64,000 bases of DNA from an uncultured SAR116 cluster alpha proteobacterium (GTDB taxonomy: Bacteria; Pseudomonadota; Alphaproteobacteria; Puniceispirillales; GCA-002684695), in the NCBI GenBank assembly GCA_902612965.1, contig CACMFN010000002.1, forward strand, positions 30,456-94,455, written 5' to 3'. Below are positions 4,412-25,608 of this stretch, in pieces; the stretch's first letter is position 1; each line of letters opens with the position of its first letter. The position numbers and the translations under genes are program-made. Below the pieces are notes generated by a model. That model did not search any database. It was not told where the DNA came from and saw only the letters and a program-made list of their open reading frames with translations.

Positions 4412-4420
4412 TTTGATAAA

Positions 4421-4801: not shown

Positions 4802-4840
4802 ACTCCTTAATTTAAATATAGTACATCATTAATAAAAATT

Positions 4841-5476
4841 CTATTCTTTTGATCCTCTGATTATAGTTGAAGAAATATTGATATTAACATTATGAAAATA
4901 TCCCCAAATAGGTGGTTCTGAAATTGAAAGCAACTTTAACCTACTAGAATTTATTCGTTTGCCCAAAACATATGCTCCCTTTGAGTTAATTGATCTAAGT
5001 GGGCTGCCCCTTCTGTTAAAAACTGCAAAAGGAATCAAGTTTGATATTTTTTTTGCTTTATACCATTTACTGAAATTCAATAAGTTATCAGAACCCATTA
5101 TCCAAATTAATTTCATATTAGATAAACGTGGTAATATTTTTTTTAACAAATCATAGCTATTTTTAGTTTTAAGATTATTTTCTAAATTTAAAACTTTAAA
5201 TTTTGGATGATTTGCAATTTTTTTTGTAAGTTCTACCCTTTGTGAAAGTGACATTAGACCTTTAGAAGTTTTTAAGGGGTTTTTTGTAGATACCAGCCAC
5301 CACACCTCATCTAAGTTAAGGTTTTTAAGTGCTAATTTTGCTATTTTCAGATGTCCATTATGCGGCGGATTGAACGAACCCCCCATCAAACCAATTTTTA
5401 AACCCTTATTATTATAGATGTATTTTGATAATATTCTTATTTTACTAAGGTCTGATCTGGCCATTACCGTGAACAA
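4841..5476 (-). CDS. nadD: Nicotinate-nucleotide adenylyltransferase (start uncertain; overlaps proA 3' end)
   Basis: GGSFNPPHNGH, WWLVS-NPLK, IMGSDNL, ISSTIIR. Confidence 0.93.
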   Translation of the reverse strand: MFTVMARSDLSKIRILSKYIYNNKGLKIGLMGGSFNPPHNGHLKIAKLALKNLNLDEVWWLVSTKNPLKTSKGLMSLSQRVELTKKIANHPKFKVLNLENNLKTKNSYDLLKKILPRLSNMKLIWIMGSDNLLNFSKWYKAKKISNLIPFAVFNRRGSPLRSINSKGAYVLGKRINSSRLKLLSISEPPIWGYFHNVNINISSTIIRGSKE

Positions 5477-6698: not shown

Positions 6699-6718
6699 TT
6701 GAAAATATTCTAAAATTT

Positions 6719-9949: not shown

Positions 9950-10669
9950 TTGAAATTTAATTGTAATATATTTCCCATGAGCAAATCATTAGTTACAAAC
10001 TTAGTAGCACTAGTATTAACTGTAATTGGATTTTTAGAGCCTTTTGATAGTAATTTGATTTTAATGATTGGATTATTCAGCCTTTCTGGTGGAATAACAA
10101 ATTGGCTTGCAATTCATATGCTTTTTGAAAAAATACCTTTTATATACGGTTCTGGAATTATACAAATAAATTTTAAATTTTTTAAGATTGCTATAAAAAA
10201 ACTAATAATAAACGAATTTTTCTCAGACAAGAATATTCAAAAATTTACAAGTAAAATTGGCAATGAAACTATTTTATCAATTTCATCAAACATAAATTAT
10301 AATAGTATATTTGAAGAGTTAACAGATTCAATTGAAAAATCCCAATTAGGTGGGATGCTTGCAATGGTGGGTGGAAGAAAAGCTTTAGAACCACTTAGAA
10401 AACCGATAATTAAAAGGTTAGAAAGTCTAATAAAAAAAATTATTGAAAAAAACAAAACTTCATCTTTAGACAATAAGTTAACAAATGATGTTAAATTGAA
10501 TATTGAAAAATTAATAGATGACAGATTAAATGAATTATCACCTCAAGATATAAAAATCATAATAAGAGACGTTATTGATAAGCACCTTGGCTGGCTTGTT
10601 ATCTGGGGTGGCGTTTTTGGAGGTATAATTGGAGGCATAAGTTTCTATGTTTCATCAATTATATTGTGA
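9950..10669 (+). CDS. DUF445-like membrane protein (likely start ATG 9977)
   Basis: GGITNWLAIHMLF near the N-terminus and HLGWLVIWGGVFGGIIG at the C-terminus. Confidence 0.8.
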   Translation: MKFNCNIFPMSKSLVTNLVALVLTVIGFLEPFDSNLILMIGLFSLSGGITNWLAIHMLFEKIPFIYGSGIIQINFKFFKIAIKKLIINEFFSDKNIQKFTSKIGNETILSISSNINYNSIFEELTDSIEKSQLGGMLAMVGGRKALEPLRKPIIKRLESLIKKIIEKNKTSSLDNKLTNDVKLNIEKLIDDRLNELSPQDIKIIIRDVIDKHLGWLVIWGGVFGGIIGGISFYVSSIIL

Positions 10670-10730
10670 ATAATATTTTTTTGAAAATATATTTTAAAAA
10701 GATATATAAAAATAAAGTATGGAGATTAAT

Positions 10731-11552
10731 ATGAACTTTGTTCCAGCACCTATGCCAGATAATGAAAGCCGAAGACAAGAGGCTGTAGAGCGTTTACAAA
10801 TTAAAGGCACTGACCAACATGATGTTATGATTGTTTACAGTGAAATGGCACAAGAATTAACTGGGTTTGCAGCAGTTGCTGCAACTTTATTTGACGCAGA
10901 TAGCCAATACTCACTTGCATCTTGTAATTTTCCTGGAAAAAGTGGTGATAAATTAATGGATAGGGCACAAAGTATTTGCTCATACACCATACTCAGCAAT
11001 AAACCAACTCTAATTCCAGATACTTCTTCAGATCATAGGACGGCCAATCATCCAGCAGTTTTATCAGGCATGTGTAAATCTTATGCAGGTTTTCCTATAA
11101 TCAATAAAGACAACTATGCATTGGGTAGTTTTTGTTTAGTTCATCCAGAAAAAAAGGAGTTAAACAGTCAGCAGATTATTTTAATTCAAAAATTAGTTGC
11201 CCGTCTTGCACATCAATTGGATACTCAAAGTGAGCAAAGAGAAGTAACTTCAAATAAAATACAAAATGCTATTAATATATTTTCTGAAGTTGCGCCAGGT
11301 GCATCTTTAGATGATTTCAAATACTTTATTAGTTTATGTAGTGACAAAAAAGTGTCTTCATCACTGCTACAAAATTTGATAGATCTAGATTTATGCATTC
11401 TTAAGGAAAACAACATAACATTAACTCAAAAAGGAAGAGAAACTCAACAAAAGATGGGGCTTCAAACTAGGATCCTTCAAAAAATGAAAGTTGAAGGAGA
11501 CGCAGCTGATAGTATGGTCAATGATATGCTCTCAAAATTAGGAGAAATATAA
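10731..11552 (+). CDS. GAF domain protein with a possible degenerate winged-helix C-terminus
   Basis: PAPMPDNESRR N-terminus, SICSYTI, D-RTANHP, YAGFPII, LGSFCL are typical GAF motifs; GGAG at 10721 favours ATG 10731 over 10719. Confidence 0.8.
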   Translation: MNFVPAPMPDNESRRQEAVERLQIKGTDQHDVMIVYSEMAQELTGFAAVAATLFDADSQYSLASCNFPGKSGDKLMDRAQSICSYTILSNKPTLIPDTSSDHRTANHPAVLSGMCKSYAGFPIINKDNYALGSFCLVHPEKKELNSQQIILIQKLVARLAHQLDTQSEQREVTSNKIQNAINIFSEVAPGASLDDFKYFISLCSDKKVSSSLLQNLIDLDLCILKENNITLTQKGRETQQKMGLQTRILQKMKVEGDAADSMVNDMLSKLGEI

Positions 11553-11893
11553 TGTATGCTAAAGTTTACCAGTACAAATTTCCAGGAATAAGTGAAGCTA
11601 AAGTAGCGGCTGCGTTTTGTTCTGATTATTTAGGTCAAAAAATTGATGAACATAATTTTCATGGTTTAAGTGTCTTAATAAGCCAGGAAGGTGATTTAAC
11701 CATTTTAATTAAATTTGATGATGTAACTAAGTTGAAGTCGTTTGATAAGGTTGCAGATCAATTTGTAGAAGATTTAAAAAATTCATTTGTATTTAAAGAA
11801 AATAAATATGCAGGTATTTACGTATATAATTATGAAAAAGAAGCCACTATCAATGAAATCAAACTGACTGGCCCTGCAAAAGTATCAAATTAG
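11552..11893 (+). CDS. Hypothetical 113-aa protein, translationally coupled to the GAF gene
   Basis: TAATG stop/start overlap with GGAG upstream; composition of a soluble alpha/beta protein. Confidence 0.75.
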   Translation: MYAKVYQYKFPGISEAKVAAAFCSDYLGQKIDEHNFHGLSVLISQEGDLTILIKFDDVTKLKSFDKVADQFVEDLKNSFVFKENKYAGIYVYNYEKEATINEIKLTGPAKVSN

Positions 11894-11939
11894 AATAATT
11901 TAAGTTTTTATTGCAAAATAATATTTCTTAGTTTAAAAA

Positions 11940-11954
11940 GAACATAACAAGAAC
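11940..11954 (+). promoter_or_regulatory. Putative LexA (SOS) box, alphaproteobacterial type
   Basis: GAACataacaaGAAC (minus strand GTTCTTGTTATGTTC) = GTTC-N7-GTTC; intergenic, just downstream of a TTGCAA(11911)-17-TAAAAA promoter-like element. Confidence 0.75.
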
Positions 11955-11969
11955 AAATTTTTAGTAGTA

Positions 11970-12116
11970 ATGTTTATTTTAAAACTTTCTCAAAGCTTAA
12001 GTATTTTAATTATTGTATTAAATCTCTCATTAATCTTGGGTTTTGCATTTAGTATTTCGCTATTTTTATCATTTTCAGCATTAATTGTATCAAATTTTTT
12101 AATTGATATTAATTGA
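11970..12116 (+). CDS. Unannotated 48-aa hydrophobic small protein
   Basis: ATG 11970 to TGA 12116: MFILKLSQSLSILIIVLNLSLILGFAFSISLFLSFSALIVSNFLIDIN; fills a 266-bp gap in an otherwise compact window; no clear Shine-Dalgarno. Confidence 0.55.
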   Translation: MFILKLSQSLSILIIVLNLSLILGFAFSISLFLSFSALIVSNFLIDIN

Positions 12117-12159
12117 GAACTTATTATGAAGTATTTATATTTTTAAAGTATAAATACCT

Positions 12160-13101
12160 ATGAATAATCAATTAAAAAAATTAGTAGCAGACTTTGGGGG
12201 CACTCACTTACGCATTGGCATATCAAACGAATTAGAAATAAATAACATATCTAAAATTAGATATAATAACGAAACTTCATCCATAAAATTAATTTCAAAC
12301 TATATAAACGATTTTAAAGACATTGATCAAATTAGAATATGTGCCGCTGGACCGATTGAAAATGAGAAAATTGAGATAACAAATAGTAACCTTGTAATTT
12401 CCAAAAAAGAAATTTCTGAATTCAGTAAAATTGATGATGTTGTAATTTTTAATGACGCTGAAGCCGCGTGTAATTATTTACCTGTGATTAAAAAAGAATC
12501 TTACAAAACTGTTAACTATGGAAAGTCTTTGAATAATAACTTTGCATATATTGCTTTAGGCACTGGTTTAGGTGTTTCAGGTGTGCAAAAATTAAAAAAT
12601 AAGTCAGTAGTTTTTTCAGGGGAAGGTGGGTATTGTCATATTCCTTATACAGAAAATGATACAATTTCGCGAGATGTAATTAATATTATTCAGGAGTACT
12701 ATCCAAGAATTTCATCTGAAAGACTTATTAGTGGCCCAGGACTGTCTTTAATTTTTAAAGCACTTTGTTTGTTAAAAGATTACAAATCAAATCTTTCATC
12801 AGAAGAAATTGTACTGAATGCTGTCAAAAATAAAAAAGGATTTGAATATGATGCTTGTAAAATATTATTCGAATTACTTGGTAAATTTTCTGCCTCTATT
12901 GCTTTAGTATATGGAGCCAGAGGTGGAGTATTTTTAAGTGGGGGTCTTTTGGAGAGACTTTTCCCAATTTTACCAAATGACTTACTTTTAAAAAATTTTT
13001 TAATTAATGGCAGAATGCAAGAATATGTGAATAATATACCCCTTCATATTATTAATGATGATTTAGTATCTTTAAAAGGTTGTGCGGCCTATCAAGAATA
13101 A
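12160..13101 (+). CDS. glk: Glucokinase (Glk family)
   Basis: LVADFGGTHLR, AAGPI, NDAEA, GTGLGV, GEGGY, SERLISGPGL, GGVFLSGG. Confidence 0.85.
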   Translation: MNNQLKKLVADFGGTHLRIGISNELEINNISKIRYNNETSSIKLISNYINDFKDIDQIRICAAGPIENEKIEITNSNLVISKKEISEFSKIDDVVIFNDAEAACNYLPVIKKESYKTVNYGKSLNNNFAYIALGTGLGVSGVQKLKNKSVVFSGEGGYCHIPYTENDTISRDVINIIQEYYPRISSERLISGPGLSLIFKALCLLKDYKSNLSSEEIVLNAVKNKKGFEYDACKILFELLGKFSASIALVYGARGGVFLSGGLLERLFPILPNDLLLKNFLINGRMQEYVNNIPLHIINDDLVSLKGCAAYQE

Positions 13102-13103
13102 GC

Positions 13104-14201
13104 TTATAATAATAAATTTTTTTCTGATATTTTATCGAATTGATATATCTTTTCCTCTTTTATAATAAGTTTGACTTTCATGTTTTCTTTTAGAGTATGG
13201 CTACTTTCTACTTTGCCTGTAAGTTCTCCATAATTACTATCACATATTACTACTGTTTCGTGACCCATTGGCTCAATAACTGAAATTTCTGCATCTAATT
13301 CAATTGAATCTTTCATTTTACTTTTTTTATCAAGATTTACACTTATGTCCTCTGGTCTTATCCCAAATATAATATCTTGATCTTTTTCATATATATTACT
13401 GCTAAGTTTTATATCTTTTTGATCTTTTAAAGTAATTGTAGTTAATGATTTTGAGCAACTCTTTACTTTTCCTTCAAAAAAGTTCATAGCAGGTGTTCCT
13501 ATAAAACTTGCAACAAAAATGTTATTTGGTTTTTTATATACTTCGTTTGGCGTGCCTACTTGCTCAATTACTCCATCTTTCATAATAACAATCCTGTCTG
13601 CTAAAGTCATTGCCTCAATTTGATCATGAGTGACATAAATTGTAGTTGTACCAACCTGCTTATGAAGCTTTTTCATTTCAGCTCTCATTTTATGCCTCAG
13701 TTTGGCATCTAAATTAGACAATGGTTCATCGAATAAAAAAACCTTAGGATTTCTCACGATGGCTCTTCCCATAGCTACACGTTGCTTTTGGCCTCCTGAT
13801 AGTTCTCCTGGTCTTCTTGACAAAAGCCCTTGCAAACCTAATGTTTCCGAAGCCTCTAAAACTCTATTTTCTACCTCCATTTTGGGTAACTTTTGTGCCC
13901 TAAGTCCAAATGAAATATTATCTTTAACTGATAAATGTGGATATAATGCATAGTTTTGAAAAACCATTGCTATATCGCGGTCTTTAGGATGAACTTTATT
14001 GATTAGGCTATCATCAATGTAAATATTACCAGCAGTTATATCTTCTAACCCAGCTATCATTCTAAGTGTAGTAGATTTTCCACATCCAGAAGGACCTACT
14101 AATACAATAAATTCTCCATCTGCAATTTTTAGATTGAAGTCTTCTACAGCTTTTACTTCACCATAATTTTTAAATAGATTTTCAAATTGAACATTAGCCA
14201 T
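13104..14201 (-). CDS. Carbohydrate ABC transporter ATP-binding subunit (MalK/UgpC family)
   Basis: GPSGCGKST, VFQNYALYPH, LSGGQKQR, DEPLSNLDAKLR, C-terminal TOBE region. Confidence 0.95.
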   Translation of the reverse strand: MANVQFENLFKNYGEVKAVEDFNLKIADGEFIVLVGPSGCGKSTTLRMIAGLEDITAGNIYIDDSLINKVHPKDRDIAMVFQNYALYPHLSVKDNISFGLRAQKLPKMEVENRVLEASETLGLQGLLSRRPGELSGGQKQRVAMGRAIVRNPKVFLFDEPLSNLDAKLRHKMRAEMKKLHKQVGTTTIYVTHDQIEAMTLADRIVIMKDGVIEQVGTPNEVYKKPNNIFVASFIGTPAMNFFEGKVKSCSKSLTTITLKDQKDIKLSSNIYEKDQDIIFGIRPEDISVNLDKKSKMKDSIELDAEISVIEPMGHETVVICDSNYGELTGKVESSHTLKENMKVKLIIKEEKIYQFDKISEKNLLL

Positions 14202-14215
14202 ATTTGCCTCTAACT

Positions 14216-15700
14216 TTAGGAATGATTTTTGTAAAAATTAATCAATTTATTTTTGCTTTCATCAATCGAATTTTCACATTTAACTATTATATTTTTATAT
14301 TCTGATAAGTCTTTTTTATAAATTTCTAAACTATTAGTAATTGATTGTTTTGAGGGACCACCAGGTAAATTTCTTACATTGATAAAATGTTCAGGTGAAC
14401 AAACCTCTTTAAAACGTTTTTCATTCATCTTTAGCGGAGCTCCCACTAATTTTTCAAATAATTTTGAGAAGATAGTAAAGTCAATATCATCTAAAGATGT
14501 ATTTTTAGAAATTAGTTTCTTTGATAATTGTTGGGATACTTCATGCGCTTGACGGAAACTAATATTTTCATCTCTTACTAATGAATCTGCTAATTCGGTA
14601 ATTGTCGCCATTGACAACTTTATTCTATTATCAACTGAATTCTTATTTATTTGAATGGATTCCACAAACCCTGCTAAAAGAGGAATTATTGTAGACATAA
14701 AACCAAATGCCTTATGACCTTCAGATTGAACTTCCCTCTCGGAGTCATTCATATCTGCAAAAGGTGTATTATGCATAGTATTAATGATTTTATCACATTC
14801 TCCATTACATAATGATAGTTTTAATCTTAAATGTTCCAATGGAACAGGATTTCTTTTTTGTGGCATAATTGATGATATTTGCACAAATCCATCTGGGACG
14901 TAGATTTGACTAACCTCGAAACCTGTCCATGTAACTAATTCTTGAACAAATCTGCCAAGGTTTATTGAAGCAATCTTTAAAGAGGAATAGGTCGAAGTAA
15001 TGTAATCACAACTTGCAATTGCGCCATAAGAGTTTTGGACAATTCTCTCAAATCCTAACAGATTTGCCATTCGCTCTCTTTTTAATGGAAATCCAGTGGT
15101 TGTAATTGCAGCAGCACCCATTGGTGACATATTTACTAAATTTAAAGAATATATTAATCGATCAACGTCTCTTAATGAAAACTCAATCACTGCACAGAGA
15201 AAATGAGCAAGTGTTGAAGCTTGAGCTGGTTGTCCGTGTGTATACATTAAAATAATTTCTGAAACGCCTTTTTCAGTTCTTGCAACAAGTTGTTCTATAA
15301 GAGCGATCATCTCCTTTAATAAAGAAATTAATTTCTTTCTTAATTCGATTCTAAACATGGTATGTTCCATGTCATTGCGTGAACGTCCTGTATGAAGTTT
15401 ACCTGCTATATCAACTCCTATTTTTTCAATTAAAGTTTTCTCAACTAGAAAAAATAGATCTTCAAACTTTGCGTCATATTCTAAGTTATCAAAATCAAAT
15501 TCATGTTCAATTTTATAAAGATTTTTGAAAATTAGTTTGGCTTCTTCATCATTAATTATGCTTTGCTCATTCAACATAATACACTGAGCATAATTAATCT
15601 GAAAAAGAGCGTCTCTAAATATGTTTTTATAAATAAAAAGGTCTGGCTTTAAAAAACTGTCTACATAAATTTTTGCAGGAAATTTGTCATATTTATCCAT
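14216..15700 (-). CDS. Aspartase/fumarase superfamily lyase, argininosuccinate lyase-like but non-canonical
   Basis: HTGRSRND and SSIMPQKRNP signatures; lacks the ArgH N-terminal WGGRF, and has YTHGQPAQ instead of YTHLQ; embedded in a sugar ABC operon. Confidence 0.85.
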   Translation of the reverse strand: MDKYDKFPAKIYVDSFLKPDLFIYKNIFRDALFQINYAQCIMLNEQSIINDEEAKLIFKNLYKIEHEFDFDNLEYDAKFEDLFFLVEKTLIEKIGVDIAGKLHTGRSRNDMEHTMFRIELRKKLISLLKEMIALIEQLVARTEKGVSEIILMYTHGQPAQASTLAHFLCAVIEFSLRDVDRLIYSLNLVNMSPMGAAAITTTGFPLKRERMANLLGFERIVQNSYGAIASCDYITSTYSSLKIASINLGRFVQELVTWTGFEVSQIYVPDGFVQISSIMPQKRNPVPLEHLRLKLSLCNGECDKIINTMHNTPFADMNDSEREVQSEGHKAFGFMSTIIPLLAGFVESIQINKNSVDNRIKLSMATITELADSLVRDENISFRQAHEVSQQLSKKLISKNTSLDDIDFTIFSKLFEKLVGAPLKMNEKRFKEVCSPEHFINVRNLPGGPSKQSITNSLEIYKKDLSEYKNIIVKCENSIDESKNKLINFYKNHS

Positions 15701-15703
15701 ATT

Positions 15704-16552
15704 TTAACCTTTTAAACCTGCCAGCATTATTCCCTTGATGATATACTTTTGAAGAAAAATAAAAACAAACAAAGTTGGAATTGTAGCTAAACATGAAGCA
15801 GTCATTACAATTTCCCAATCCATTTGAAATTCACCGTTGAAGGAGGCTAAACCTACAGGTATAGTATACATATCAGGATCATTAACTATTATTAAAGGCC
15901 AAAGAAAGGCTGTCCAATTACCTAAAAAATGAAAAATTGCTAATGCAGATAAAGCTGGAATAACAAGAGGCATTGCAATTTTCCACCAAATGGCAAATTC
16001 AGACCAACCATCAATTCTAGCAGCTTCTATTAGTTCGTCTGGCAATGTCAAAAAAAACTGCCTCATTAGAAATGTCCCAAAACCAGTCATTAGTCCAGGG
16101 AAGGCAATGCCCCAATAAGTATCAATCCAACCGAATTCTCGTGACATCATATACCATGGAATTATAAGCATTTCTGTTGGGATCATTAATGTGCTTAAAA
16201 TAGCGACAAAAACAATTTCTCTACCTCGAAATTTAAATTTTGCAAGTGTATATCCTACGAGGCTATCAAAAAATAAAACAGAAGCAGTACTAAACGATGC
16301 AACCCATAATGAATTTAGTAACCAAATTAAAAATTTGGACTCCTTTAAAATGAAGATATAGTTTTCAAATGTTGGTGACTTTGGAAATAATGAGAGAGTA
16401 TATACTTCTTGGCCAGTTTTAAATGAGGTACTTACCATAAATATTATTGGCGTAACCATAACTATGCTTCCGATGAATAAAAGTGTCCATGTTAAAATCT
16501 TTGAGGGATTTAAATGCTCTAATCTTTCAATTATTTGATCATTTTTTTTCAT
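15704..16552 (-). CDS. Carbohydrate ABC permease (MalG-like)
   Basis: EAA loop ELIEAARIDG; multiple TM segments. Confidence 0.95.
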   Translation of the reverse strand: MKKNDQIIERLEHLNPSKILTWTLLFIGSIVMVTPIIFMVSTSFKTGQEVYTLSLFPKSPTFENYIFILKESKFLIWLLNSLWVASFSTASVLFFDSLVGYTLAKFKFRGREIVFVAILSTLMIPTEMLIIPWYMMSREFGWIDTYWGIAFPGLMTGFGTFLMRQFFLTLPDELIEAARIDGWSEFAIWWKIAMPLVIPALSALAIFHFLGNWTAFLWPLIIVNDPDMYTIPVGLASFNGEFQMDWEIVMTASCLATIPTLFVFIFLQKYIIKGIMLAGLKG

Positions 16553-17450
16553 ACTGATCTCTTGCTAACCATAATTGTAAAAGACTTACAAATAACAATA
16601 GTAGAAATAAAATAACTGTTAAAGCTGAAGCTCTACCAAGCTTATACATATCAAATGCATACTCATAAATCATTAAGACTAGAGGTTTTGTTGAATTTAG
16701 AGGTCCCCCGGCACTATCTGCTGACATATTATAAACTTGATCAAAAATTCTCAAAAACCCAATTGTAGAAATAATTACAAGAAAAACAGTTGTTGGTTTT
16801 AGAGCGGGTAAAATTATTTCTCTTAAAATTTGAAACCTACCTGCTCCATCAATTTCAGCAGCCTCAAAGTGACTTTTTGGTATTGCCCGAAGACCAGCAA
16901 TAAAAATTACAATTTGAAAGCCAAGTCCAGCCCATACTGCTGGGGCCATTATTGAATAAAGACCTTGCTCTACTGATCTTAAAAAAGGTTGTTGCTCAAT
17001 TCCAAACCAAGAAAGAATTATATTGAAATATCCAATTGGCATTGGCTGGTAAAACCACCTCCAGACCCAAGCCATTGCAACTGCCGTTGTTAAAAATGGA
17101 ATGAAATATAATGCTCTTATAGTTTGATGACCAAATCTTATTTCATTTAGATAATATGCAACTGTAAAAGAGATCAAAAGACTTATTGGCACACCTATTA
17201 TTGCGTATTTTATAGTATTCCAGAATACTATCCAAAAATCTTCATCCCCAAAAATGCGAGAGAAGTTTTTAAATCCTATATATTTTTGGGTACCTAATAA
17301 GTTCCACTTCATAAATGAAACATAAAAAGCTTCAAAGGTAGGGTAAAATCTTATTGTTACATAAAAAATTATAGGAACTGCTAAAAAGAACCAAGCTGTG
17401 ATAGCTAATTTTTGATTTATTGTAAGATTTTCCCAGAAACTCTTAATCAT
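16539..17450 (-). CDS. Carbohydrate ABC permease (MalF-like)
   Basis: IGFKNF and EAAEIDGA motifs; TM segments. Confidence 0.95.
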   Translation of the reverse strand: MIKSFWENLTINQKLAITAWFFLAVPIIFYVTIRFYPTFEAFYVSFMKWNLLGTQKYIGFKNFSRIFGDEDFWIVFWNTIKYAIIGVPISLLISFTVAYYLNEIRFGHQTIRALYFIPFLTTAVAMAWVWRWFYQPMPIGYFNIILSWFGIEQQPFLRSVEQGLYSIMAPAVWAGLGFQIVIFIAGLRAIPKSHFEAAEIDGAGRFQILREIILPALKPTTVFLVIISTIGFLRIFDQVYNMSADSAGGPLNSTKPLVLMIYEYAFDMYKLGRASALTVILFLLLLFVSLLQLWLARDQYEKK

Positions 17451-17475
17451 TACTTTTAATTATTAATGTAACTAA

Positions 17476-17502
17476 AGGGAAGGCCTTTAAAAGACCCCCC
17501 CT
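17476..17502 (-). terminator. Stem-loop after the SBP gene (mRNA stabiliser or attenuator)
   Basis: Minus strand AGGGGGGGUCUU-loop-AAGGCCUUCCCU pairs using G-U; lies between SBP and permease. Confidence 0.6.
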
Positions 17503-17511
17503 ATATTGAAT

Positions 17512-18762
17512 TTAATTGCCAAAAAAATCATCAAGTAATTCTTGTTCTTTTTTAGCAACTTTAGCGAGTGCGTCTTCTGGAGACATACCTTGTAAAACTA
17601 CCATATCATATGAATCAATTACTGATTGTCTTTGTGGTTTTTCTGAGATAAATGTAGTCGCAGTTGCGTAATCTAAACCTCTTATAAAAGGACCATACTG
17701 AGGGTGACCTTTATTTGCATCTACAAGTGCAACAGAGGGTTTTGCAGGCAACTCACCAACAGTATCAAGCCATACCTGCATCGCTTCTTCCGAAGTTAAG
17801 TATTTTAAAAATTTTGCAGCAGCTTCTTTTTTTTCACCTTTGGCTTTAGTACTTAATGCGTTTGCCCAAAATGATGAGAAGTTGTATCTGGTGCCATTAT
17901 GACCTGGCAATTCTGATATTGAAAAGTTCAAACCATCCGTTTTGTTAAACTTAGAAATTCTAAAAGAACCATCCAAAACCATTCCTGCCTTACCAGCTGC
18001 AAATGCATCCTGACCTCTATTCATAAAACCATTACTGCCGGTCTTATGAGTTTTTTCAAAATCAGTAAGATATTTTAGTGCCTCAGCACCTGCATCAGTA
18101 TTGTAGGTTACTTTTTGCCCATCATTAGAATATGGTTGACCTCCAAAATGTCTAATTAGAACTTCTCTCCAAAAATGGTGGTCTTGACCATCTGTATCTA
18201 CCGCAAAGCCTACTTGAATATAGTTTCCAGCAGAATCAGTTTTGGTAAGTTTTTTTGCGTATTCAACCATTTGGTCTAATGTTTCAGGTGGTCCAGAGAG
18301 ACCTGCTTCAGAAAATAGATCATTGTTGTAAAATAGTGCTAATGATCTAACAGCAGTTGGTAACCCCCAATAATCACCATCAACTTTCATAGATGAAACC
18401 ATTTTAAAGAAATTACTTTCTATTTCATCATGTGGGAAAGTGTCTTTTGGTAAAGGTTGTATTAAACCACCATCTCTATAGTCATTCAGCCACCCATAGT
18501 AAAGCTGAACTAAATCAGGTCCATCACCTGAGGATATGGCAATAGAAACCTTTTTTCGATAATCAGCGTAAGGAAAAGAGGTGTGTTTAACAGTTATGTC
18601 AGGGTTGGCTTTTTCAAAATTCGCAATTAATTTGTCAATTGCTTCAACCCTTGCCTTGTAAGTGTATTGCCAATATTCTATTTCCACTGCGTTTGCAGTT
18701 ATGCTACTGAAAATAAAAATTGAACCAATTATAGAAAATAAGAATAATTTTATATTTTTCAA
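17512..18762 (-). CDS. Carbohydrate ABC solute-binding protein (family 1)
   Basis: Signal peptide, FEKANPDITV, GPDLV, ALFYNNDLF; GGAGG upstream suggests TTG start at 18762 rather than ATG 18774. Confidence 0.92.
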   Translation of the reverse strand: MKNIKLFLFSIIGSIFIFSSITANAVEIEYWQYTYKARVEAIDKLIANFEKANPDITVKHTSFPYADYRKKVSIAISSGDGPDLVQLYYGWLNDYRDGGLIQPLPKDTFPHDEIESNFFKMVSSMKVDGDYWGLPTAVRSLALFYNNDLFSEAGLSGPPETLDQMVEYAKKLTKTDSAGNYIQVGFAVDTDGQDHHFWREVLIRHFGGQPYSNDGQKVTYNTDAGAEALKYLTDFEKTHKTGSNGFMNRGQDAFAAGKAGMVLDGSFRISKFNKTDGLNFSISELPGHNGTRYNFSSFWANALSTKAKGEKKEAAAKFLKYLTSEEAMQVWLDTVGELPAKPSVALVDANKGHPQYGPFIRGLDYATATTFISEKPQRQSVIDSYDMVVLQGMSPEDALAKVAKKEQELLDDFFGN

Positions 18763-18873
18763 TGTATCCTCCATTACATAAATTATTTATAATTAATCTA
18801 TTTTATCATAAATTATTGATTTTAATAATACTATTACACTAATATCAAATATTGAATTTCTACAAGTTATATT

Positions 18874-21324
18874 ATGCGAAAACAAGATATTGAAAATCAG
18901 GAACATCGCTACCTTAACAGGTCTTTGTGGGCTAATTTACAATCACTAAAATCCACAGTTTCATTTATGCAAACTGGTGCTCATCCTGATGATGAAACTA
19001 GTCGTCTTCTTGCTAAGTTATCTCTTGGTGAGGGTTATCACGTGTCTTATGTAAACGCAGTAAGGGGCCAGGGCGGCCAGAACAGCATTGGTCCTGAGAG
19101 AGATGACAATTTAGGTGCGTTGCGAACTTATGAATTACTAAAAGCTATGTCAGTATTAAGAGTTGATATTGGATGGCTTGCTGATAATAGAAATAATAGT
19201 ATTTTTGACTTTGGTTTATCTAAATCAGCAGAGGAAACATTTGAATTTTGGGATAAAAATTATACCATTAAAAGAATGATCAGAATGGTCAGAGCTTATA
19301 AACCTGACATAATTATACCTACCTTTTTAGATGTTAATGGCCAACATGGACACCACAGATCTATAACAAGAGCTACTATTGAAGCATATGATAAATCTAA
19401 TGATCCAGAGATGTTTCCAGATGACAATTTTAGCCCTTGGAAAATATCTCAGATATTTCTACCTGCTTGGAGTGGGGGTGGAGGTTCCTATGACGATGAG
19501 GAAGATCCACCAAAGGCAACACATTCTATAGATGTTGGTAATTTTAATCACATGTATGGTGGAACATATAATCAAATTGGTGAGTGGTCTCGCTCATATC
19601 ATGCTACTCAAAATATTGGGAAATTAGCTTATGAAGACAAAATGGAAGTCCCCCTTCACTTGCTTAAAGGTACATATGTTGATGGAGATATCACAGGTGG
19701 TTTAATACCAAAGAATTTTCTTGAACTTTCAAATTTTGCAATAAATGTAAATGGAAAAAAGATACTTCGAGAATGCCATAAACTTGCTAATGATGCCATT
19801 GAAAACTTTAGCAAACCTGAGCACTTAGTCTCTTCTTTGTGCAAACTAAAAAACTTATTAGACACAAAAGAACCTTTACTTACCGAGAATCATTCTCATA
19901 GAATTATTCTGAAACAGAAACAGTGCTCATCAGCGATGGTTGATTGTATAGCTCTATTGCCAGATCTAAATTTTACTCATGATATTCATTATACAGGAGG
20001 AAATATTGAAGCAAATTTATCAATACATAAAAATGAAAATTTTAAAATAACTGATATTGAACATGAAATTATAGCTCCTTTCAATACTGACTTAAAGTTT
20101 TCAAATGAGAACAAATTGGCATCTAATAGAATTAACTACTTTTATAAAGGATTAATAAATCAGAAAGAGAGTTATCAGGATCTTTATCAAGAATGGCATG
20201 GAATTGCTCTTGAACCTAATTGTGTCCACGCAAAGCTAAATTTTAATGTTAATGACACTTCCTTCTCAACAAATGTAATGCCTAAAAATAATTTTGCCAT
20301 TATCCCAGATATTATTGGGTCTTTAGAAAATGATAAAATAATTAATTTAATAAAGGGGGGTAAAAAAAGTAATGATTTAACAAAATTACCAATAAAATTT
20401 CTCATTAAAAAATATTCTCCTGGCCCTGCTAAATTAATACTCAATATCCCAGACAATTGGGTTTGTAGTAATACGTCTTTTAAATTGGAAGACAATCATA
20501 ATTTTGAAACAACTCCATTCAATTCTGAAATACATATACCATCACAAATTAGTGAAGGTGTAGAGAAACTATATATTACTTCTGAAAATGATAAAATTTT
20601 GGGAACATCTGTATTTGGTTATAGCCATACTGGAGAAATAAGTCTTGAAGACAAGTGTGAACTATCAATACTTAATTTAATAAGCCAAGATTTAAAAGGC
20701 ATCAAAATCGGCTGGATAGACGGCTACGCAGACAAAGCCTGGAAATGGGCAAGAATGCTTGATGCAGATGTTCACCTACTCTCTGATGAAGAGATTATTT
20801 CTGAAGACTTTTCTAAGTTTGATACAATAGTTTCAGGTGTTTTTGCAGGTGCTTCTAGGCCAATTCATAAAGTATTTAATAAGATAAATAAATGGATAGA
20901 AAATGGTGGAAACTATGTAACTGAATACCAAAGGCCACAAGACAACTGGAACGAGAAACTGAGTGGCCCCTATTTTTTAAAAATAGGAAGCCCGTCAATA
21001 AGGTGGCGAGTAACCAACCCTTCAGCTGAAGTTGGTTTTTTAGACTCTAACCATCCAATACTAAACTTTCCTAACAAAATTTCCTCAAAAGATTTTAATA
21101 ATTGGATAAAAGAGAGGGGATTATATTTTGCCTCTAGTTGGGATGAAAAATATAAGCCATTATTTATGATGTCTGATGATAATGAGCAGCCTTTATTTGG
21201 AGGTTTATTGGCTGCAGATTACGGATCTGGCAGACATATACATTGCGCTCTAAATCTTTTTTATCAAATGGATAATTTGGTGCCAGGGGCTTTTAGAATT
21301 TTTGTAAACATTCTGAAAAAATAA
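18874..21324 (+). CDS. Large PIG-L/LmbE family metal-dependent deacetylase/amidase
   Basis: GAHPDDE, RGQGGQN and HGHH motifs; C-terminal region with WIKERGLYF; no signal peptide. Confidence 0.88.
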   Translation: MRKQDIENQEHRYLNRSLWANLQSLKSTVSFMQTGAHPDDETSRLLAKLSLGEGYHVSYVNAVRGQGGQNSIGPERDDNLGALRTYELLKAMSVLRVDIGWLADNRNNSIFDFGLSKSAEETFEFWDKNYTIKRMIRMVRAYKPDIIIPTFLDVNGQHGHHRSITRATIEAYDKSNDPEMFPDDNFSPWKISQIFLPAWSGGGGSYDDEEDPPKATHSIDVGNFNHMYGGTYNQIGEWSRSYHATQNIGKLAYEDKMEVPLHLLKGTYVDGDITGGLIPKNFLELSNFAINVNGKKILRECHKLANDAIENFSKPEHLVSSLCKLKNLLDTKEPLLTENHSHRIILKQKQCSSAMVDCIALLPDLNFTHDIHYTGGNIEANLSIHKNENFKITDIEHEIIAPFNTDLKFSNENKLASNRINYFYKGLINQKESYQDLYQEWHGIALEPNCVHAKLNFNVNDTSFSTNVMPKNNFAIIPDIIGSLENDKIINLIKGGKKSNDLTKLPIKFLIKKYSPGPAKLILNIPDNWVCSNTSFKLEDNHNFETTPFNSEIHIPSQISEGVEKLYITSENDKILGTSVFGYSHTGEISLEDKCELSILNLISQDLKGIKIGWIDGYADKAWKWARMLDADVHLLSDEEIISEDFSKFDTIVSGVFAGASRPIHKVFNKINKWIENGGNYVTEYQRPQDNWNEKLSGPYFLKIGSPSIRWRVTNPSAEVGFLDSNHPILNFPNKISSKDFNNWIKERGLYFASSWDEKYKPLFMMSDDNEQPLFGGLLAADYGSGRHIHCALNLFYQMDNLVPGAFRIFVNILKK

Positions 21325-21342
21325 ATATTTAGAAACTGTATT

Positions 21343-22200
21343 GTGTCAATAAAGGATAATAATTTTAACGGCCTTTACTGGCTGATATTTAATGAACTTT
21401 TTTTGATTGTTCATATTATTCTAATAAAGACACTCGTAGCAGATTTACCGATATTTCAGATTGTTTTTATGCGCTCTATTTCAAGCTCAGTTATTCTAAT
21501 TCCAATACTATTCTCTACAGGCAGACAAAAAAATATTTTTTCTAATCTAGGAGTAAATCTATTAAGGGTAGTGTTATCTTTTTTAGCTATATCTATTCAA
21601 TTTTTTACAATATCCAATATTCAATTAGCACAAGTAAGCACAATTGGTTACTTAAGACCAAGTATAATGAGTATCTTTGCGTACTTTATTTTAAGTGAAA
21701 AACAGTCAAAAGGTAGATGGCTTGTTTTAATAATTGGTTTTTTATCAATTTTATTAGTTTTTTCACCAGAAAATCAATCAATTCAGCTAGTTGCTTTAAT
21801 AGCATTATTGGGAACATGTTGTGGCGCTTTATCGACAATTGTCCAAAAGTATCTATCAAAAAGCTTTTCTGAAATACAACTGATGACCTGGTATTCACTT
21901 GGGATTTCTTTTCTATCGCTGCCTTTTTGCCTTTATTTTTGGGTAGACATTTCTTTTAAAGAAACGTTGTTCATGATTTCAACAGGATTACTAGCAACAA
22001 GTGCACAATATTTTTATATTCGGGCTTTTAAGCTTTCTCAAGCCTCTTTCCTCGCACCAATTCAATACTTCCATATAATTCCAGTTTTGATTATAGGCTA
22101 CGTAATTTTTCTTGAAGTGCCAAGTATTCAAACACTTATAGGGGCATTAATAATTATTTTATCTTTAATTGGTTTACTGATTTGGGAAAAGAATAGATAA
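21343..22200 (+). CDS. EamA/DMT family transporter
   Basis: About 10 TM segments, QIVFMRS, ILSEK, ASFLAPIQY, FLEVP. Confidence 0.88.
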   Translation: MSIKDNNFNGLYWLIFNELFLIVHIILIKTLVADLPIFQIVFMRSISSSVILIPILFSTGRQKNIFSNLGVNLLRVVLSFLAISIQFFTISNIQLAQVSTIGYLRPSIMSIFAYFILSEKQSKGRWLVLIIGFLSILLVFSPENQSIQLVALIALLGTCCGALSTIVQKYLSKSFSEIQLMTWYSLGISFLSLPFCLYFWVDISFKETLFMISTGLLATSAQYFYIRAFKLSQASFLAPIQYFHIIPVLIIGYVIFLEVPSIQTLIGALIIILSLIGLLIWEKNR

Positions 22201-22232
22201 TAAACAAAGAATAATTGATCATTGGAGATTTA

Positions 22233-22673
22233 ATGTTTTACCTGCACACTATGGTACGAATTACAAATGAAGAAGAGTCACTAAAATTTTATTGTGATAT
22301 CCTGGGGATGGAACTAGCTAGGAAAGTTGAAAGTGAAAAAGGAAGATATACTAACTATTTTCTACATGCTCCTGAGGATAAAGATAATTATCATTCCAAA
22401 AAGGCACCAGCTTTAGAATTAACTTATAATTGGGACCCAGAGGACTATACAGGAGGTAGAAATTTTGGTCACCTTGCTTACAGAGTAGACAATATCTATG
22501 ACTATTGTCAAAAATTAATGGATTATGGAGTAGAAATAAATAGACCACCGAGAGATGGCAACATGGCATTTATTAAATCTCCTGATGGCATTTCTATTGA
22601 ATTATTGCAAAATGGTGATCCATTAGAAATAAAAGAACCATGGTCATCAATGAAAAATATTGGCACTTGGTAA
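22233..22673 (+). CDS. gloA: Lactoylglutathione lyase (glyoxalase I, VOC family)
   Basis: YLHTMVR, LELTYNW, FGHLAY, INRPPRDG, SPDGISIEL; GGAG before ATG 22233. Confidence 0.88.
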   Translation: MFYLHTMVRITNEEESLKFYCDILGMELARKVESEKGRYTNYFLHAPEDKDNYHSKKAPALELTYNWDPEDYTGGRNFGHLAYRVDNIYDYCQKLMDYGVEINRPPRDGNMAFIKSPDGISIELLQNGDPLEIKEPWSSMKNIGTW

Positions 22674-22737
22674 AATTAACCATATTGAGTTAACTTAAAT
22701 TTAATAAATTAATTCAATTACTTAAAAGAGATTTATT

Positions 22738-23253
22738 TTGAAAGAATTTGTTAGAACAATTAAAGACTACCCAATAAAAGGCATTCAATTTAGAGACATA
22801 ACCACACTATTGCAACGAGCAGATTTATTTCATGACTTAATTGATGAAATGACAAAACCTTGGGAAAATAAAAATATTGATGCAATTGTAAGCATTGAAG
22901 CAAGAGGTTTTATTATGGCAGGAGCAATAGCCTATAAATTAAATACTGCGTTTATTCCAATGCGTAAGCCTGATAAATTACCTGCTGAAACATTTAAAGT
23001 AAAATTTGATTTAGAATATGGTTCAACTGAAATGCACCTTCATAAGGACGCCCTTGACAACCATCAAAATATTTTAATAATTGATGACTTGCTTGCGACT
23101 GGCGGAACTGCTGTAGGAGCTGTTAAGCTTATTAATATGTTTGAAAACAAAAATATTGTTGGTGCGGGGTTTATAATAAATCTACCTGAATTAAAAGGTG
23201 AAGAAATTTTGAATAAAATGGGTATAAAAACTCACTCACTTATGGAATTTTAA
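22738..23253 (+). CDS. apt: Adenine phosphoribosyltransferase
   Basis: GIQFRDITTLL, EARGF, RKPDKLP, LEYG, DDLLATGGT. Confidence 0.97.
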   Translation: MKEFVRTIKDYPIKGIQFRDITTLLQRADLFHDLIDEMTKPWENKNIDAIVSIEARGFIMAGAIAYKLNTAFIPMRKPDKLPAETFKVKFDLEYGSTEMHLHKDALDNHQNILIIDDLLATGGTAVGAVKLINMFENKNIVGAGFIINLPELKGEEILNKMGIKTHSLMEF

Positions 23254-23456
23254 ATTTTAGCCTTTGAAAAGTCTTTATGGTATAGCCTGTGTAATTCAAG
23301 GGCTAGTTCCATAGCTGGATGATCCACTCTTACAGATGCCTGCCCTAGTAACCCACTAATAGCTTCTTGCTCAGTCAAACCCATTGAAACTAAATCTGAT
23401 ATAGCTATTGAAAAAACGTCTAATATTGCCTGAGCATGATTTGGAGATGAATACAT
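23250..23456 (-). CDS. Hypothetical 68-aa protein
   Basis: Fills an otherwise empty gap; ATG start with upstream AGGA; no recognised family. Confidence 0.55.
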   Translation of the reverse strand: MYSSPNHAQAILDVFSIAISDLVSMGLTEQEAISGLLGQASVRVDHPAMELALELHRLYHKDFSKAKI

Positions 23457-23591
23457 ATTGTGGGGATCCTTTTATCTTTTTATTATTAAAGGCTATGAGC
23501 AAGATCAATGCCATTAAATAACAAAATTAAAATTTTACTCTTTTAATATTTATCCGTTATATATAGAGAAATAATTTTCAAAATTTGCGTT

Positions 23592-23888
23592 ATGTGCCAC
23601 AAATATAAATATATTTTTTTAGTACTATTTTTATTTAAAGCTAACACATCGTTAGCACAATCAGTCTCATCAAATGTAACAATTATCTCATCACCAGAAA
23701 AAACGGTGGCTGCAAGTGCACAAAGTGGGGCAAATACTCTACAAGTGATAAACTCTTATGGTCTAGGTCTAACTTCAACTATAAACTTAAGTTGGCTTTC
23801 ACTGGCATTAGGCTTGGCTGTGGCTTCTGTGTGGGATGGAGAAAGTGGAGGTAGTAATAATTCTACTTCAACATCAACTACTAATTAG
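23592..23888 (+). CDS. Hypothetical exported or membrane-anchored small protein
   Basis: Signal peptide ending SLA|Q, C-terminal hydrophobic helix, Ser/Thr tail STSTSTTN. Confidence 0.6.
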   Translation: MCHKYKYIFLVLFLFKANTSLAQSVSSNVTIISSPEKTVAASAQSGANTLQVINSYGLGLTSTINLSWLSLALGLAVASVWDGESGGSNNSTSTSTTN

Positions 23889-23889
23889 T

Positions 23890-24444
23890 TTATCCAAATA
23901 ACTCTATCTCCAGAGCATTAATAAGCTTGGAACTTTCAGGTTTTGTCATTGATGAAAAAAAGTTTACAGGAATACCGTTCTTATCAATAATATATTTATA
24001 AAAATTCCACTTGGGAGAACTACGTGATCCCAAATTCTTTTCTATATATTTAAATAGAGGATGAGCATTTTCTCCCCTAACATTACTTGTTTCTGTCATT
24101 ATGAAATCTACATTAAAGTTAACTTCACAAAAGTTTTTAACTTCAGTATTTGTTTTAGCCTCTTGATTAAAGTCATTAGACGGCACTCCAATAACTACAA
24201 GTCCATCTTTTCTGTATTTGTTCCAAATATTTTGTAATCCAGTAAACTGTCTTGTAAAGCCGCAAAATGATGCAGTGTTTACAACAAGGAATGTTTTATC
24301 CCTATAATTTTCCAAAGAAATTTTATTACCATCGATAGAATTAAATTTAATATCATAAAATTCGTCTACAGAAATTTTTGCATTAGTTTGTAAGGCAGCA
24401 AACATAATAATTGTTCCAAAGATAAGATTTAAAAATAAATTCAT
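23890..24444 (-). CDS. Glutathione peroxidase family protein (Cys type, with signal peptide)
   Basis: VNTASFCGFT, PSNDFNQE, WNFYKY. Confidence 0.93.
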   Translation of the reverse strand: MNLFLNLIFGTIIMFAALQTNAKISVDEFYDIKFNSIDGNKISLENYRDKTFLVVNTASFCGFTRQFTGLQNIWNKYRKDGLVVIGVPSNDFNQEAKTNTEVKNFCEVNFNVDFIMTETSNVRGENAHPLFKYIEKNLGSRSSPKWNFYKYIIDKNGIPVNFFSSMTKPESSKLINALEIELFG

Positions 24445-24495
24445 TTTAGAGAGATAGTATTGATTTTAAATAAATCCAGCTTTAAGATAATTTTT

Positions 24496-24756
24496 TTAAT
24501 TTTTGCGAGGATTTGAAGCTCTTCTTAAAGCAAAATTTTCTTCTCTTTTTGCTAGCATTTCTTCTCGTTTTCCTAAAGCAAGACAATCAGGGCAAACACA
24601 TTCACCAGCTAAATCCCAACTCTCAAGTAAATTAGGCGAGTGATGGCACCAGCAACTTCCAGGTGGACCTGAAGTACAAACAAATTCAGCACCACATTTT
24701 ATACATTTCAGATCTTTGTTCCTGACTTCATTATTTTTGTTATAAGCTTTTGTCAC
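24496..24756 (-). CDS. Cysteine-rich CWC family protein
   Basis: CxxC...C...CWC...CxCxxC pattern. Confidence 0.8.
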   Translation of the reverse strand: MTKAYNKNNEVRNKDLKCIKCGAEFVCTSGPPGSCWCHHSPNLLESWDLAGECVCPDCLALGKREEMLAKREENFALRRASNPRKN

Positions 24757-25606
24757 TTTTTTTTAAATTAACCTCAGATTTTTTCCAAATATCTTCAATC
24801 CACAATTTAATTTTTAATGCTTCCTCCCATCGATTGGATAATTCTTTTCCATTTTTATCCGTCATCGCATACTCAGGAGGTCCTAATTCACATAAAAAAT
24901 AACAAGTTCCTTCTGAATTTCTTAGACGCCATTTTTCAATGCCTTCATACCACCAATCTTTAAAAAGATTAACCCATTTCTGATGCTGTGGAAAGTCAAT
25001 TTGTAGTTGAATTTGCTGCCTACTTGCTACACGCCCTTGAAAACTATCTGACCTATCTAAAATTCTTGAAATCATTCCCAAGTCTCTTTCTGAAAGTGGA
25101 TACCAGAATTCTCTATCTACAACATAGTGAGAAAGATCTGAACACATTCTCATTTCAGGAATTGCATCAAGCAATTGAAGTGTTGAATAAAGATCATTTG
25201 TAATGCAATTGCGGTGTGTTTCAAATTGGATAGGGATACCAATTTTATCAGCCATATCAATCCACTTTCTTATTACTGGAATCATACCATCAACTGATAT
25301 TGGCATAACTTGCCCAATCACATTAATAAAAGGTGAACCAAAATCTTTAGCCATTTTCATAGTGTCATTTAGAGAATTAATAGTTTTTGGGAAAGCTACT
25401 ATTAATGGTGTAAGGCCAATTTTTTCCATAAGCGGTTGTAATTCAAATGCTTTTTTAACATCTGAAGCACCTAGGTCTATAGCCATACCATTATAACCAG
25501 CTTCAAAGACTAGCTCACATATTTTTTCATCAGGCAGTTTATTACCTGTATCATCGTGAGGCGACATTGCCCAATAAGAAGTGAAAACTTCTAATTTTTG
25601 TTGCAA
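24740..25606 (-). CDS. Xylose isomerase-like TIM-barrel protein (sugar phosphate isomerase/epimerase family)
   Basis: ETHR, DLSHY, GRVA and CELGPP metal-binding-type motifs. Confidence 0.75.
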   Translation of the reverse strand: MQQKLEVFTSYWAMSPHDDTGNKLPDEKICELVFEAGYNGMAIDLGASDVKKAFELQPLMEKIGLTPLIVAFPKTINSLNDTMKMAKDFGSPFINVIGQVMPISVDGMIPVIRKWIDMADKIGIPIQFETHRNCITNDLYSTLQLLDAIPEMRMCSDLSHYVVDREFWYPLSERDLGMISRILDRSDSFQGRVASRQQIQLQIDFPQHQKWVNLFKDWWYEGIEKWRLRNSEGTCYFLCELGPPEYAMTDKNGKELSNRWEEALKIKLWIEDIWKKSEVNLKKSDKSL

Positions 25607-25608
25607 GT

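Follow-up and report, generated by a model that had tools for sequence, protein, structure and literature searches.

A conserved importer-amidase-lyase cluster of marine Alphaproteobacteria and its candidate role in scavenging bacillithiol-type compounds

The substrates of characterised LmbE-like hydrolases are N-acyl-glucosamine amides, and the enzyme Bca frees the glucosamine-malate (GlcN-malate) core from bacillithiol conjugates (PMC4101496). Among bacterial thiols, bacillithiol derivatives have been predicted to be the most widespread (PMC6282198). Lyases of the aspartase/fumarase superfamily carry the SS-loop motif GSSxxPxKxN with a catalytic serine and use a beta-elimination mechanism (PMC13411527). 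Breakdown of S-(2-succino)cysteine (2SC) by the yxe cluster employs a hydrolase and a superfamily lyase, 2SL, and yields fumarate from a thiol-related succinate adduct (PMC9706529). Ethylenediaminedisuccinate (EDDS) lyase (PDB 6G3D, 6RX8), deposited under the name argininosuccinate lyase, is catabolic and also releases fumarate, and XcbC of coenzyme M synthesis, a homologue of argininosuccinate lyase (ASL, ArgH), eliminates an oxygen-linked group, phosphate (PMC9457059). Here, we describe a gene cluster in a stretch of 64,000 nucleotides (the window) from an uncultured SAR116 cluster alphaproteobacterium (assembly GCA_902612965.1, contig CACMFN010000002.1; G000:C2:30456-94455 in our numbering). 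The source assembly, G000, comprises 2.14 Mb and is 83% complete. The cluster combines an ATP-binding cassette (ABC) importer, a large PIG-L/LmbE amidase and an ArgH-like lyase. It resembles 2SC and EDDS breakdown in having a superfamily lyase and fumarate as product, and Bca and Mca in its amidase, but falls outside the ArgH, XcbC, BshB, Mca and MshB families.

We consider it probable, with some reserve, that this conserved cluster scavenges bacillithiol-type compounds made by other bacteria. Its substrate and every reaction were inferred from what could be seen directly, namely the anatomy of the locus, co-occurrence, residues, folds and a family link to the bacillithiol (bsh) genes. A preliminary description, made from the DNA letters alone, had proposed a candidate undescribed pathway that imports a sugar-dicarboxylate conjugate, deacylates it, cleaves it to fumarate plus sugar and phosphorylates the sugar; this reading is supported, and neither of two conditions that would have refuted it applies. 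The cluster is real and conserved, and neither it nor a GlcN-malate lyase is described in the literature searched, which left most subscription journals and all supplements outside. The same searches returned no degradation route for the GlcN-malate core of bacillithiol and no glycoside-cleaving reaction for the aspartase/fumarase superfamily.

Gene order and distribution of the cluster

The genes that make up the cluster are the following:

17512..18774, minus strand: substrate-binding protein (SBP) of a CUT1 carbohydrate ABC importer (Pfam SBP_bac_1/8)
16539..17450, minus strand: ABC permease of UgpA/MalF type (profile matches)
15704..16552, minus strand: ABC permease of UgpE/MalG type (profile matches), overlapping the permease at 16539-17450 by 14 bp
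14216..15700, minus strand: aspartase/fumarase-superfamily lyase of an ArgH-like separate group (Lyase_1 and ASL_C2), predicted GlcN-malate lyase
13104..14201, minus strand: ABC ATPase of UgpC/MalK type (profile matches)
18775..18873, no strand: AT-rich divergent intergenic region between the SBP and PIG-L genes
18874..21324, plus strand: large cytoplasmic PIG-L/LmbE metallo-amidase of 816 amino acids, predicted bacillithiol(-conjugate) amidase

The operon SBP-permease-permease-lyase-ATPase, as the preliminary description had drawn it, was recovered with all its genes in place, and the successive gaps on the minus strand are 61, -14, 3 and 14 bp. The importer has the parts of a CUT1 system: an SBP of family 1, two MalF/MalG-type permeases and a MalK-type ATPase with an OB domain. 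The divergent PIG-L gene had been said to share a region of roughly 100 bp with the operon; its start was measured at 99 bp from the first ATG of the SBP gene, or at 111 bp if the TTG at 18762 is used, which stands behind GGAGG and is likely the true SBP start. Two further claims were borne out as well, since PIG-L has no hydrophobic N-terminus by hydropathy score and thus appears cytoplasmic, and no glycosidase was found in a scan of 14 proteins of the window, which covered 9950 to 26592 except for apt and two small open reading frames (ORFs). Beyond the window, the annotations of ten group records place no glycoside hydrolase in the cluster, and none was found among 15 further neighbours scanned.

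The closest relatives of the window carry the label marine Alphaproteobacteria. The same gene order recurs in 16 of 16 GTDB loci, as far as their contigs reach, and the arrangement is therefore not due to chance. Among these loci, the SBP is 69-85% identical and thus better conserved than the lyase or PIG-L; no solved relative of the SBP scores above 95 bits, so that structure is uninformative about its ligand. In most relatives, a regulator gene (ROK, GntR or LacI) lies between the SBP and PIG-L genes. It is absent in the lineage of the window (the window, L009 and L010) and in L011, L013, L014 and L016. A sigma-70-like site at 18848-18819 (minus strand, 10/12 matches) did not rise above the shuffle background, and a promoter and terminator scan gave nothing specific (78 sites; shuffle mean 58.5, sd 9.4).

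The preliminary description had made its reading depend on lyase, PIG-L and ABC importer occurring together elsewhere, and they do so widely, in genomes and on plasmids. Among 400 evenly drawn Alphaproteobacteria, the large PIG-L was found in nine genomes and the lyase in ten. All nine PIG-L genomes have both genes, adjacent in eight and on different contigs in one. A second 400 genomes drawn at phylum level added four carriers, all of them Alphaproteobacteria with the full cluster and both genes adjacent (4/4). In PLSDB, each of the 22 plasmid records with the PIG-L, nine of them from Aminobacter, carries the lyase 2.8-4.7 kb away. The importer changes from locus to locus: it is mostly of sugar type, of peptide/opine type (family 5) in L046, L047 and L049, and of PhnS/iron type in two Bacillus-like loci. 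Lyase and PIG-L are the core of the cluster. In the Bacillus-like loci (L025:14039-16552, L079:9508-10914), the lyase stands with the PhnS/iron-type ABC system and a BadF/NagK kinase; the PIG-L of L079 has a hydrophobic N-terminus, which suggests extracellular deacylation there. Deinococcus loci use other PIG-L types.

Parts of the stretch are also present in seawater RNA libraries (15 RNA rows). Contigs from libraries of four studies match pieces of the locus, with lyase and PIG-L covered by shorter pieces, and three of the four hold pieces of the SBP gene of 535-1103 nt at at least 99% identity. These data are contigs from libraries in which DNA is possible; transcription, strand, level and operon structure cannot be read from them, and parts without coverage are uninformative.

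The lyase and the large PIG-L amidase

The lyase belongs to the aspartase/fumarase superfamily by its SS-loop with the catalytic serine (ISSIMPQKRN, 275-284, where Ile replaces the Gly of the motif) and by its fold, with a model of pLDDT 92 and a TM score of about 0.8 to ASL and EDDS lyase. Among solved structures, EDDS lyase comes first both by profile (300 bits) and by fold, with ASL close behind, and all are about 25% identical. EDDS lyase cuts the C-N bond of aminopolycarboxylates, whereas the window lyase accompanies sugar kinases, deaminases and PIG-L. Against the XcbC model NF052535, the lyase scored 179 bits (cut-off 575). XcbC differs also in its substrate, phosphosulfolactate, and in its biosynthetic role. 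The 2SC pathway is set apart in that 2SL cuts a C-S bond after acetylation and amino-sugar genes are missing.

The nearest annotation is ArgH, and public records name the cluster lyase argH. On the argH model TIGR00838, the lyase does exceed the cut-off (304.8 against 279.5 bits). The preliminary description had named as a test whether this was the only ArgH of the genome, and it is not. G000 contains three Lyase_1 genes, a canonical ArgH, PurB and the cluster lyase; the canonical ArgH scores 624 bits, its gene adjoins a lysA-like gene, and ArgG is present as well. The cluster lyase is 33% identical to this ArgH. A separate ArgH was also found in 10 of 10 other carriers, at 573-610 bits compared to 278-314 for their cluster lyases.

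To compare residues, 54 proteins were aligned, among them 38 group members and 11 ArgH; the ASL-like plasmid loci L160 and L161, for which the motif used yielded no row, are absent. S107, R108, N109, T154, H155, Q157, S276, S277, K282, N284 and E289 are identical in 38/38 group members and 11/11 ArgH. Five further positions invariant in ArgH (H, R, Y, Q and K in 11/11) are replaced in all 38 group members, and the window lyase has F83, C231, D316, E321 and V324 there. We take these five ArgH residues (duck H91, R238, Y323, Q328 and K331) to form the arginine-side pocket. D316 is part of the pattern that defines the 38-row group, so its own conservation in 38/38 is circular; in a separate 34-row alignment, chosen by similarity and locus, D316, D319 and E321 are invariant. 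In a quick IQ-TREE tree with five ungrouped rows and an outgroup on a long branch, and without XcbC, 2SL or EDDS lyase, a long branch with 100% SH-aLRT support separates the 11 ArgH from the 38 group rows. The lyase is thus a separate group and not the ArgH of its genome. Since the elimination residues are kept and the ArgH-specific ones replaced, its fumarate-forming chemistry looks intact, and its leaving-group pocket looks to have turned acidic. The enzyme shares with ArgH and delta-crystallin (EC 4.3.2.1; PDB 2E9F, 1TJ7, 1K7W) the fold (TM about 0.8), the SS-loop SSxMPxKxN and the SRN and THxQ regions, but its gene is part of a catabolic importer operon and accompanies a canonical argH elsewhere in the genome, and the five pocket residues are replaced. 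A role as stand-in fumarase was considered and rejected: G000 gave no match to class II fumarase but two PF05681 matches, and no need for a stand-in is therefore shown.

The PIG-L protein was modelled with high scores (pLDDT 94.9, pTM 0.94). The model comprises a PIG-L domain, a helical part, two beta-sandwich domains and a C-terminal GATase1-like domain (Z 16.3, root-mean-square deviation 3.1, 189 aligned residues). Foldseek placed MshB and BC1534 at the top, in keeping with the Rossmann-like fold of LmbE; the PIG-L domain superposes on MshB with Z 21.4 (deviation 3.9, 243 aligned) and on BC1534 with Z 18.7. The metal motif HxDD plus H (H37-P-D39-D40 and H161) and the equivalents of MshB Arg68, Asp95 and His144 (R84, D112 and H158) are invariant or nearly so in the family. 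Fold, metal motif and GlcN-binding residues are thus those of Bca/BshB2, BshB1, Mca and MshB. Compared to these small enzymes, the window protein has 816 amino acids and at least three extra domains, and the carriers examined lack a BshC match. It stays far below the NCBIfam cut-offs for Mca (42.8 of 277), MshB (26.6 of 224) and BshB2 (24.6 of 195), and BshB1 was not listed. Unlike those enzymes, this PIG-L would be coupled to destruction, not recycling, of GlcN-malate.

Exported relatives of the amidase and bacillithiol genes

The family of the large PIG-L counts 973 representatives at E 1e-30. The tree divides it between two branches, one lyase-linked and mostly cytoplasmic, the other exported, with export judged by hydropathy only. 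Of 361 confirmed stretches in a metagenome scan, the best 80 were inspected; nine are of the lyase-linked type and 71 are other, exported-type loci. Among these 71, a sodium/solute symporter (SSS) gene stands beside PIG-L in 39, a DUF2911 gene occurs in 26 and bacillithiol genes are found in 11 (bshA in ten, bshB1-like in eight, bshC in five). By chance, one single-copy gene would be expected to fall into the 653 kb of flanks 0.11-0.33 times. Profiles confirmed BshA in six of the ten, all that were checked, at 400-539 bits (cut-off 274), and BshC in the three of five that were checked, at 387-501 bits (cut-off 266); of three BshB1 checked among the eight, two scored over the cut-off and one under. 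When at least 4 kb of downstream sequence is available, 8 of 30 exported-type loci have a bsh gene.

The gene orders vary and include PIG-L-bshC-bshB1-bshA-SSS, PIG-L-SSS-orf-bshB1-bshA, orf-bshA-PIG-L-SSS and bshC-bshA divergent from PIG-L-SSS. On the tree, bsh-linked loci occupy at least four positions; to account for the eight full-length rows with this link, a minimum of four changes of label on starred branches is required. Loci of this kind with PIG-L and symporter are L084, L086 and L136 (about 10001-17800); L087, L100, L110 and L116; L101; L109; and L124. We regard exported PIG-L, symporter and bsh genes as a candidate module for extracytoplasmic bacillithiol recycling. In six loci, an ORF of 256-313 amino acids lies between the symporter and bshB1/bshA (for example L110:14135-14968, L116:14315-15085 and L101:1531-2472); it has no Pfam or NCBIfam match and was left out of the bsh counts. 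Upstream of exported PIG-L and symporter, L096, L105 and L128 (about 4000-7200) carry a DUF1572 (DinB superfamily) gene and a gamma-glutamyltransferase gene, a hint at the handling of thiol conjugates. A recurring 'DinB-like 1' ORF was discarded, since it and the DUF2911 gene overlap on opposite strands.

The two PIG-L subfamilies are homologous over their full length (about 750 aligned columns, 24-28% identity). They share 67 columns conserved to at least 90%, R64, Q69, N70, S116, K117, R240, H243, Q246, R712, W744 and R748 among them, and only seven columns are fixed differently. The window PIG-L differs from the exported module in three ways: it lacks a hydrophobic N-terminus, its gene is flanked by neither SSS nor bsh genes, and its branch in the tree is a separate one. 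BshC (PF10079) was found neither in G000 nor in any of ten carriers (88-99% complete), in a search that was positive in three known bacillithiol producers and did not cover BshA. If bacillithiol is the substrate, it therefore comes from outside. As possible sources, N-methyl-bacillithiol was measured in Polaribacter MED152 (Bacteroidetes; PMC6282198), and its presence in Bacteroidetes, Acidobacteria and Firmicutes has been predicted (PMC6282198; commentary PMC6336425).

Proposed pathway and alternatives

The candidate substrates are Cys- or N-methyl-Cys-GlcN-malate, S-conjugates of these, or GlcNAc-malate. After import by the ABC system, the Zn-type PIG-L would hydrolyse the amide at the nitrogen of glucosamine; the products would be GlcN-L-malate and cysteine, a cysteine conjugate or acetate, and EamA might export the unusable product (released cysteine or cysteine conjugate). 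In the lyase, Ser276 or Ser277 of the SS-loop would take the beta-proton of the malyl group, and anti-elimination of the anomeric oxygen from malyl C2 would yield glucosamine and fumarate in place of a glycosidase reaction, with D316, D319 and E321 holding the freed ammonium group. C-O cleavage has precedent in the superfamily, because L-malate is the natural substrate of fumarase (PMC13411527) and XcbC eliminates phosphate. A hexose kinase and a GlcN-6-phosphate deaminase would then deliver fructose-6-phosphate to glycolysis, and fumarate would enter the tricarboxylic acid cycle. The deaminase could be a NagB-II-like gene on contig C7 in this assembly; in other genomes a deaminase gene lies inside the cluster. 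With this scheme, the lack of a glycosidase, the presence of amino-sugar genes, the acidic character of the pocket and the link of the amidase family to the bsh genes would all be explained together.

The remaining genes of the locus are:

12160..13101, plus strand: glucokinase PF02685 (Pfam 187 bits; under all NCBIfam glucokinase cut-offs)
21343..22200, plus strand: EamA/DMT exporter, in line with PIG-L after an 18-bp gap
22215..22673, plus strand: glyoxalase I-like gene, 14 bp after EamA

A sugar kinase was found in 19 of 45 lyase loci, from four unrelated families (Glk in seven, PfkB in eight, ROK in two, BadF/NagK in two), and a GlcN-6-phosphate deaminase-like gene in ten (NagB in nine, NagB-II in one). 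G000 has no match to NagB-I, and its NagB-II-like gene on C7 lies with nagA. That locus (L153, G000:C7:85600-93300) holds a sugar ABC system with nanE-, nanK-, nagA- and nagB-II-like genes and a SIS protein; it is an operon of N-acetylmannosamine or sialic-acid type and could supply the deaminase in trans. For the glucokinase, which the preliminary description had placed in the pathway, the convergent position 2 bp from the ATPase stop is real, but the link to the pathway is weak. Because it converges on the operon, keeps this position only in the two closest relatives (L009 and L010) and has no other gene of Glk type beside it in the assembly, it is probably a housekeeping kinase borrowed by the pathway, and as such would supply the GlcN kinase step. 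In five loci, an unrelated Glk (24-31% identity) flanks the opposite end.

The PIG-L unit extends past 21324 into EamA and then glyoxalase I. Among 51 loci tabulated, an EamA orthologue occurs in 11 and another DMT in five; glyoxalase I occurs in ten, within one marine subclade only, and the copy here is the sole one in the assembly. L078 carries an N-methyl-L-tryptophan-oxidase-type gene (12470-13639; 426 bits, above cut-off) directly 3' of PIG-L and DMT, which could demethylate N-methyl-cysteine from N-methyl-bacillithiol; the locus also has another PIG-L gene, whose product may bear an export signal. A persulfide-dioxygenase-like neighbour was seen in a single locus, L026. The L078 oxidase and the L026 dioxygenase fit a thiol reading; being one case each, they were given no weight. 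Elsewhere in the window, a GAF-domain protein and a 113-residue ORF (10719-11893) overlap by 1 bp and have a paralogous pair on contig C1 of G000 (about 145300-146500; 39% and 48% identity), and the minus strand at 24740-26592 carries a xylose-isomerase-like TIM-barrel gene in tandem with a fatty-acid-desaturase-like gene.

Several observations weigh against scavenging of bacillithiol-type compounds. The bsh link belongs to the exported subfamily, which is about 28% identical to the lyase-linked one and on a separate branch, and none of the lyase-linked loci examined has a bsh gene; also, 60 of the 71 exported-type loci have none in the fetched flanks, many of which are short. Just one scanned NagB-like protein reaches the curated cut-off, and the motif GH[IV][AG]FNEP is missing from two of seven. 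The closest solved structure of the lyase is a C-N lyase. In at least five loci with long flanks (L028, L029, L032, L033, L052), lyase and importer occur with no large PIG-L nearby, and in Bacillus sp. N5-665 a group member stands alone, without importer or PIG-L (L164:8938-10464), where it may serve a producer in the turnover of GlcN-malate. The counts overstate independence because the genomes are related. Finally, bacillithiol in seawater was not found described in the literature searched.

An alternative that we regard as unlikely, though worth weighing, is an N-linked substrate, either an amino sugar with a succinyl (1,2-dicarboxyethyl) group on its nitrogen or a sugar-aspartate/asparagine compound of glycation or opine type. 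Here, the lyase would cleave a C-N bond and PIG-L would remove an acyl or amide group. An acidic leaving-group pocket suits an amine as well, and the top rank of EDDS lyase by profile and fold agrees with this chemistry, but at 25% identity that enzyme is barely above the ArgH structures. The peptide/opine-type importers of some loci and the PfkB kinases of eight point in the same direction; on the fructoselysine kinase model (cut-off 247), however, these kinases do not exceed 52-60 bits, and for the SIS neighbour NagB-II gave the best match (313 bits, cut-off 430), with no FrlB-type model listed at E 1e-10. Such a substrate would also leave the adjacency of the amidase family to bshA, bshB and bshC unexplained, and it departs from the N-acyl-glucosamine amides on which characterised LmbE-like hydrolases act. 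Among the substrates put forward in the preliminary description, the comparative evidence of the bsh-linked sister PIG-L favours GlcN(Ac)-malate or bacillithiol over opine or Amadori compounds.

Less probable still are succinated thiols, from which the amidase would cut S-(2-succino)-bacillithiol or -mycothiol and the lyase, as a 2SL-like C-S lyase, would free cysteine from S-(2-succino)cysteine. 2SL itself belongs to the superfamily and acts in a breakdown cluster linked to an importer (PMC9706529), and EamA, glyoxalase I, gamma-glutamyltransferase and the one persulfide-dioxygenase-like neighbour point to thiol handling. This route, however, would leave the glucosaminide uncut, even though kinases and deaminases are recurring neighbours and none of the genes seen is a glycosidase, and no acetyltransferase recurs among the neighbours, whereas 2SL prefers the N-acetyl form. 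Furthermore, the loss of the ArgH Arg and Lys and the gain of acidic residues fit a leaving group without a carboxylate. A redundant second argininosuccinate lyase, caught by accident in an ordinary amino-sugar uptake operon next to an unrelated deacetylase, would account for the TIGR00838 score and the public argH names. It is very improbable in view of the canonical ArgH in 11 of 11 carriers examined, the five replaced positions, the fully supported long branch to ArgH and the fact that lyase and PIG-L stay together as the transporter type changes. What probability remains goes to unforeseen chemistry.

Scavenging of bacillithiol-type compounds leads to a wider proposal, to which we give an even chance: a dedicated route of bacillithiol degradation and cross-feeding, by which non-producing Alphaproteobacteria, including streamlined ocean plankton, would live partly on bacillithiol or N-methyl-bacillithiol from Bacteroidota and others. 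Its O-glycosidic bond would be cleaved by fumarate-forming beta-elimination, and the amidase would be a cytoplasmic re-use of the exported enzyme, which in producers appears to serve in recycling the thiol. What is new here is the tested link between the lyase cluster and the exported, bsh-linked PIG-L module. If the proposal is true, a set of argH annotations would be corrected, and the very large, unstudied PIG-L family would gain a function. The aspartase/fumarase superfamily would gain a new reaction, the cleavage of a glycoside without a glycosidase. The cluster would then be a sink for the GlcN-malate core of bacillithiol, and this core a new currency of cross-feeding from bacterium to bacterium in seawater and soil.

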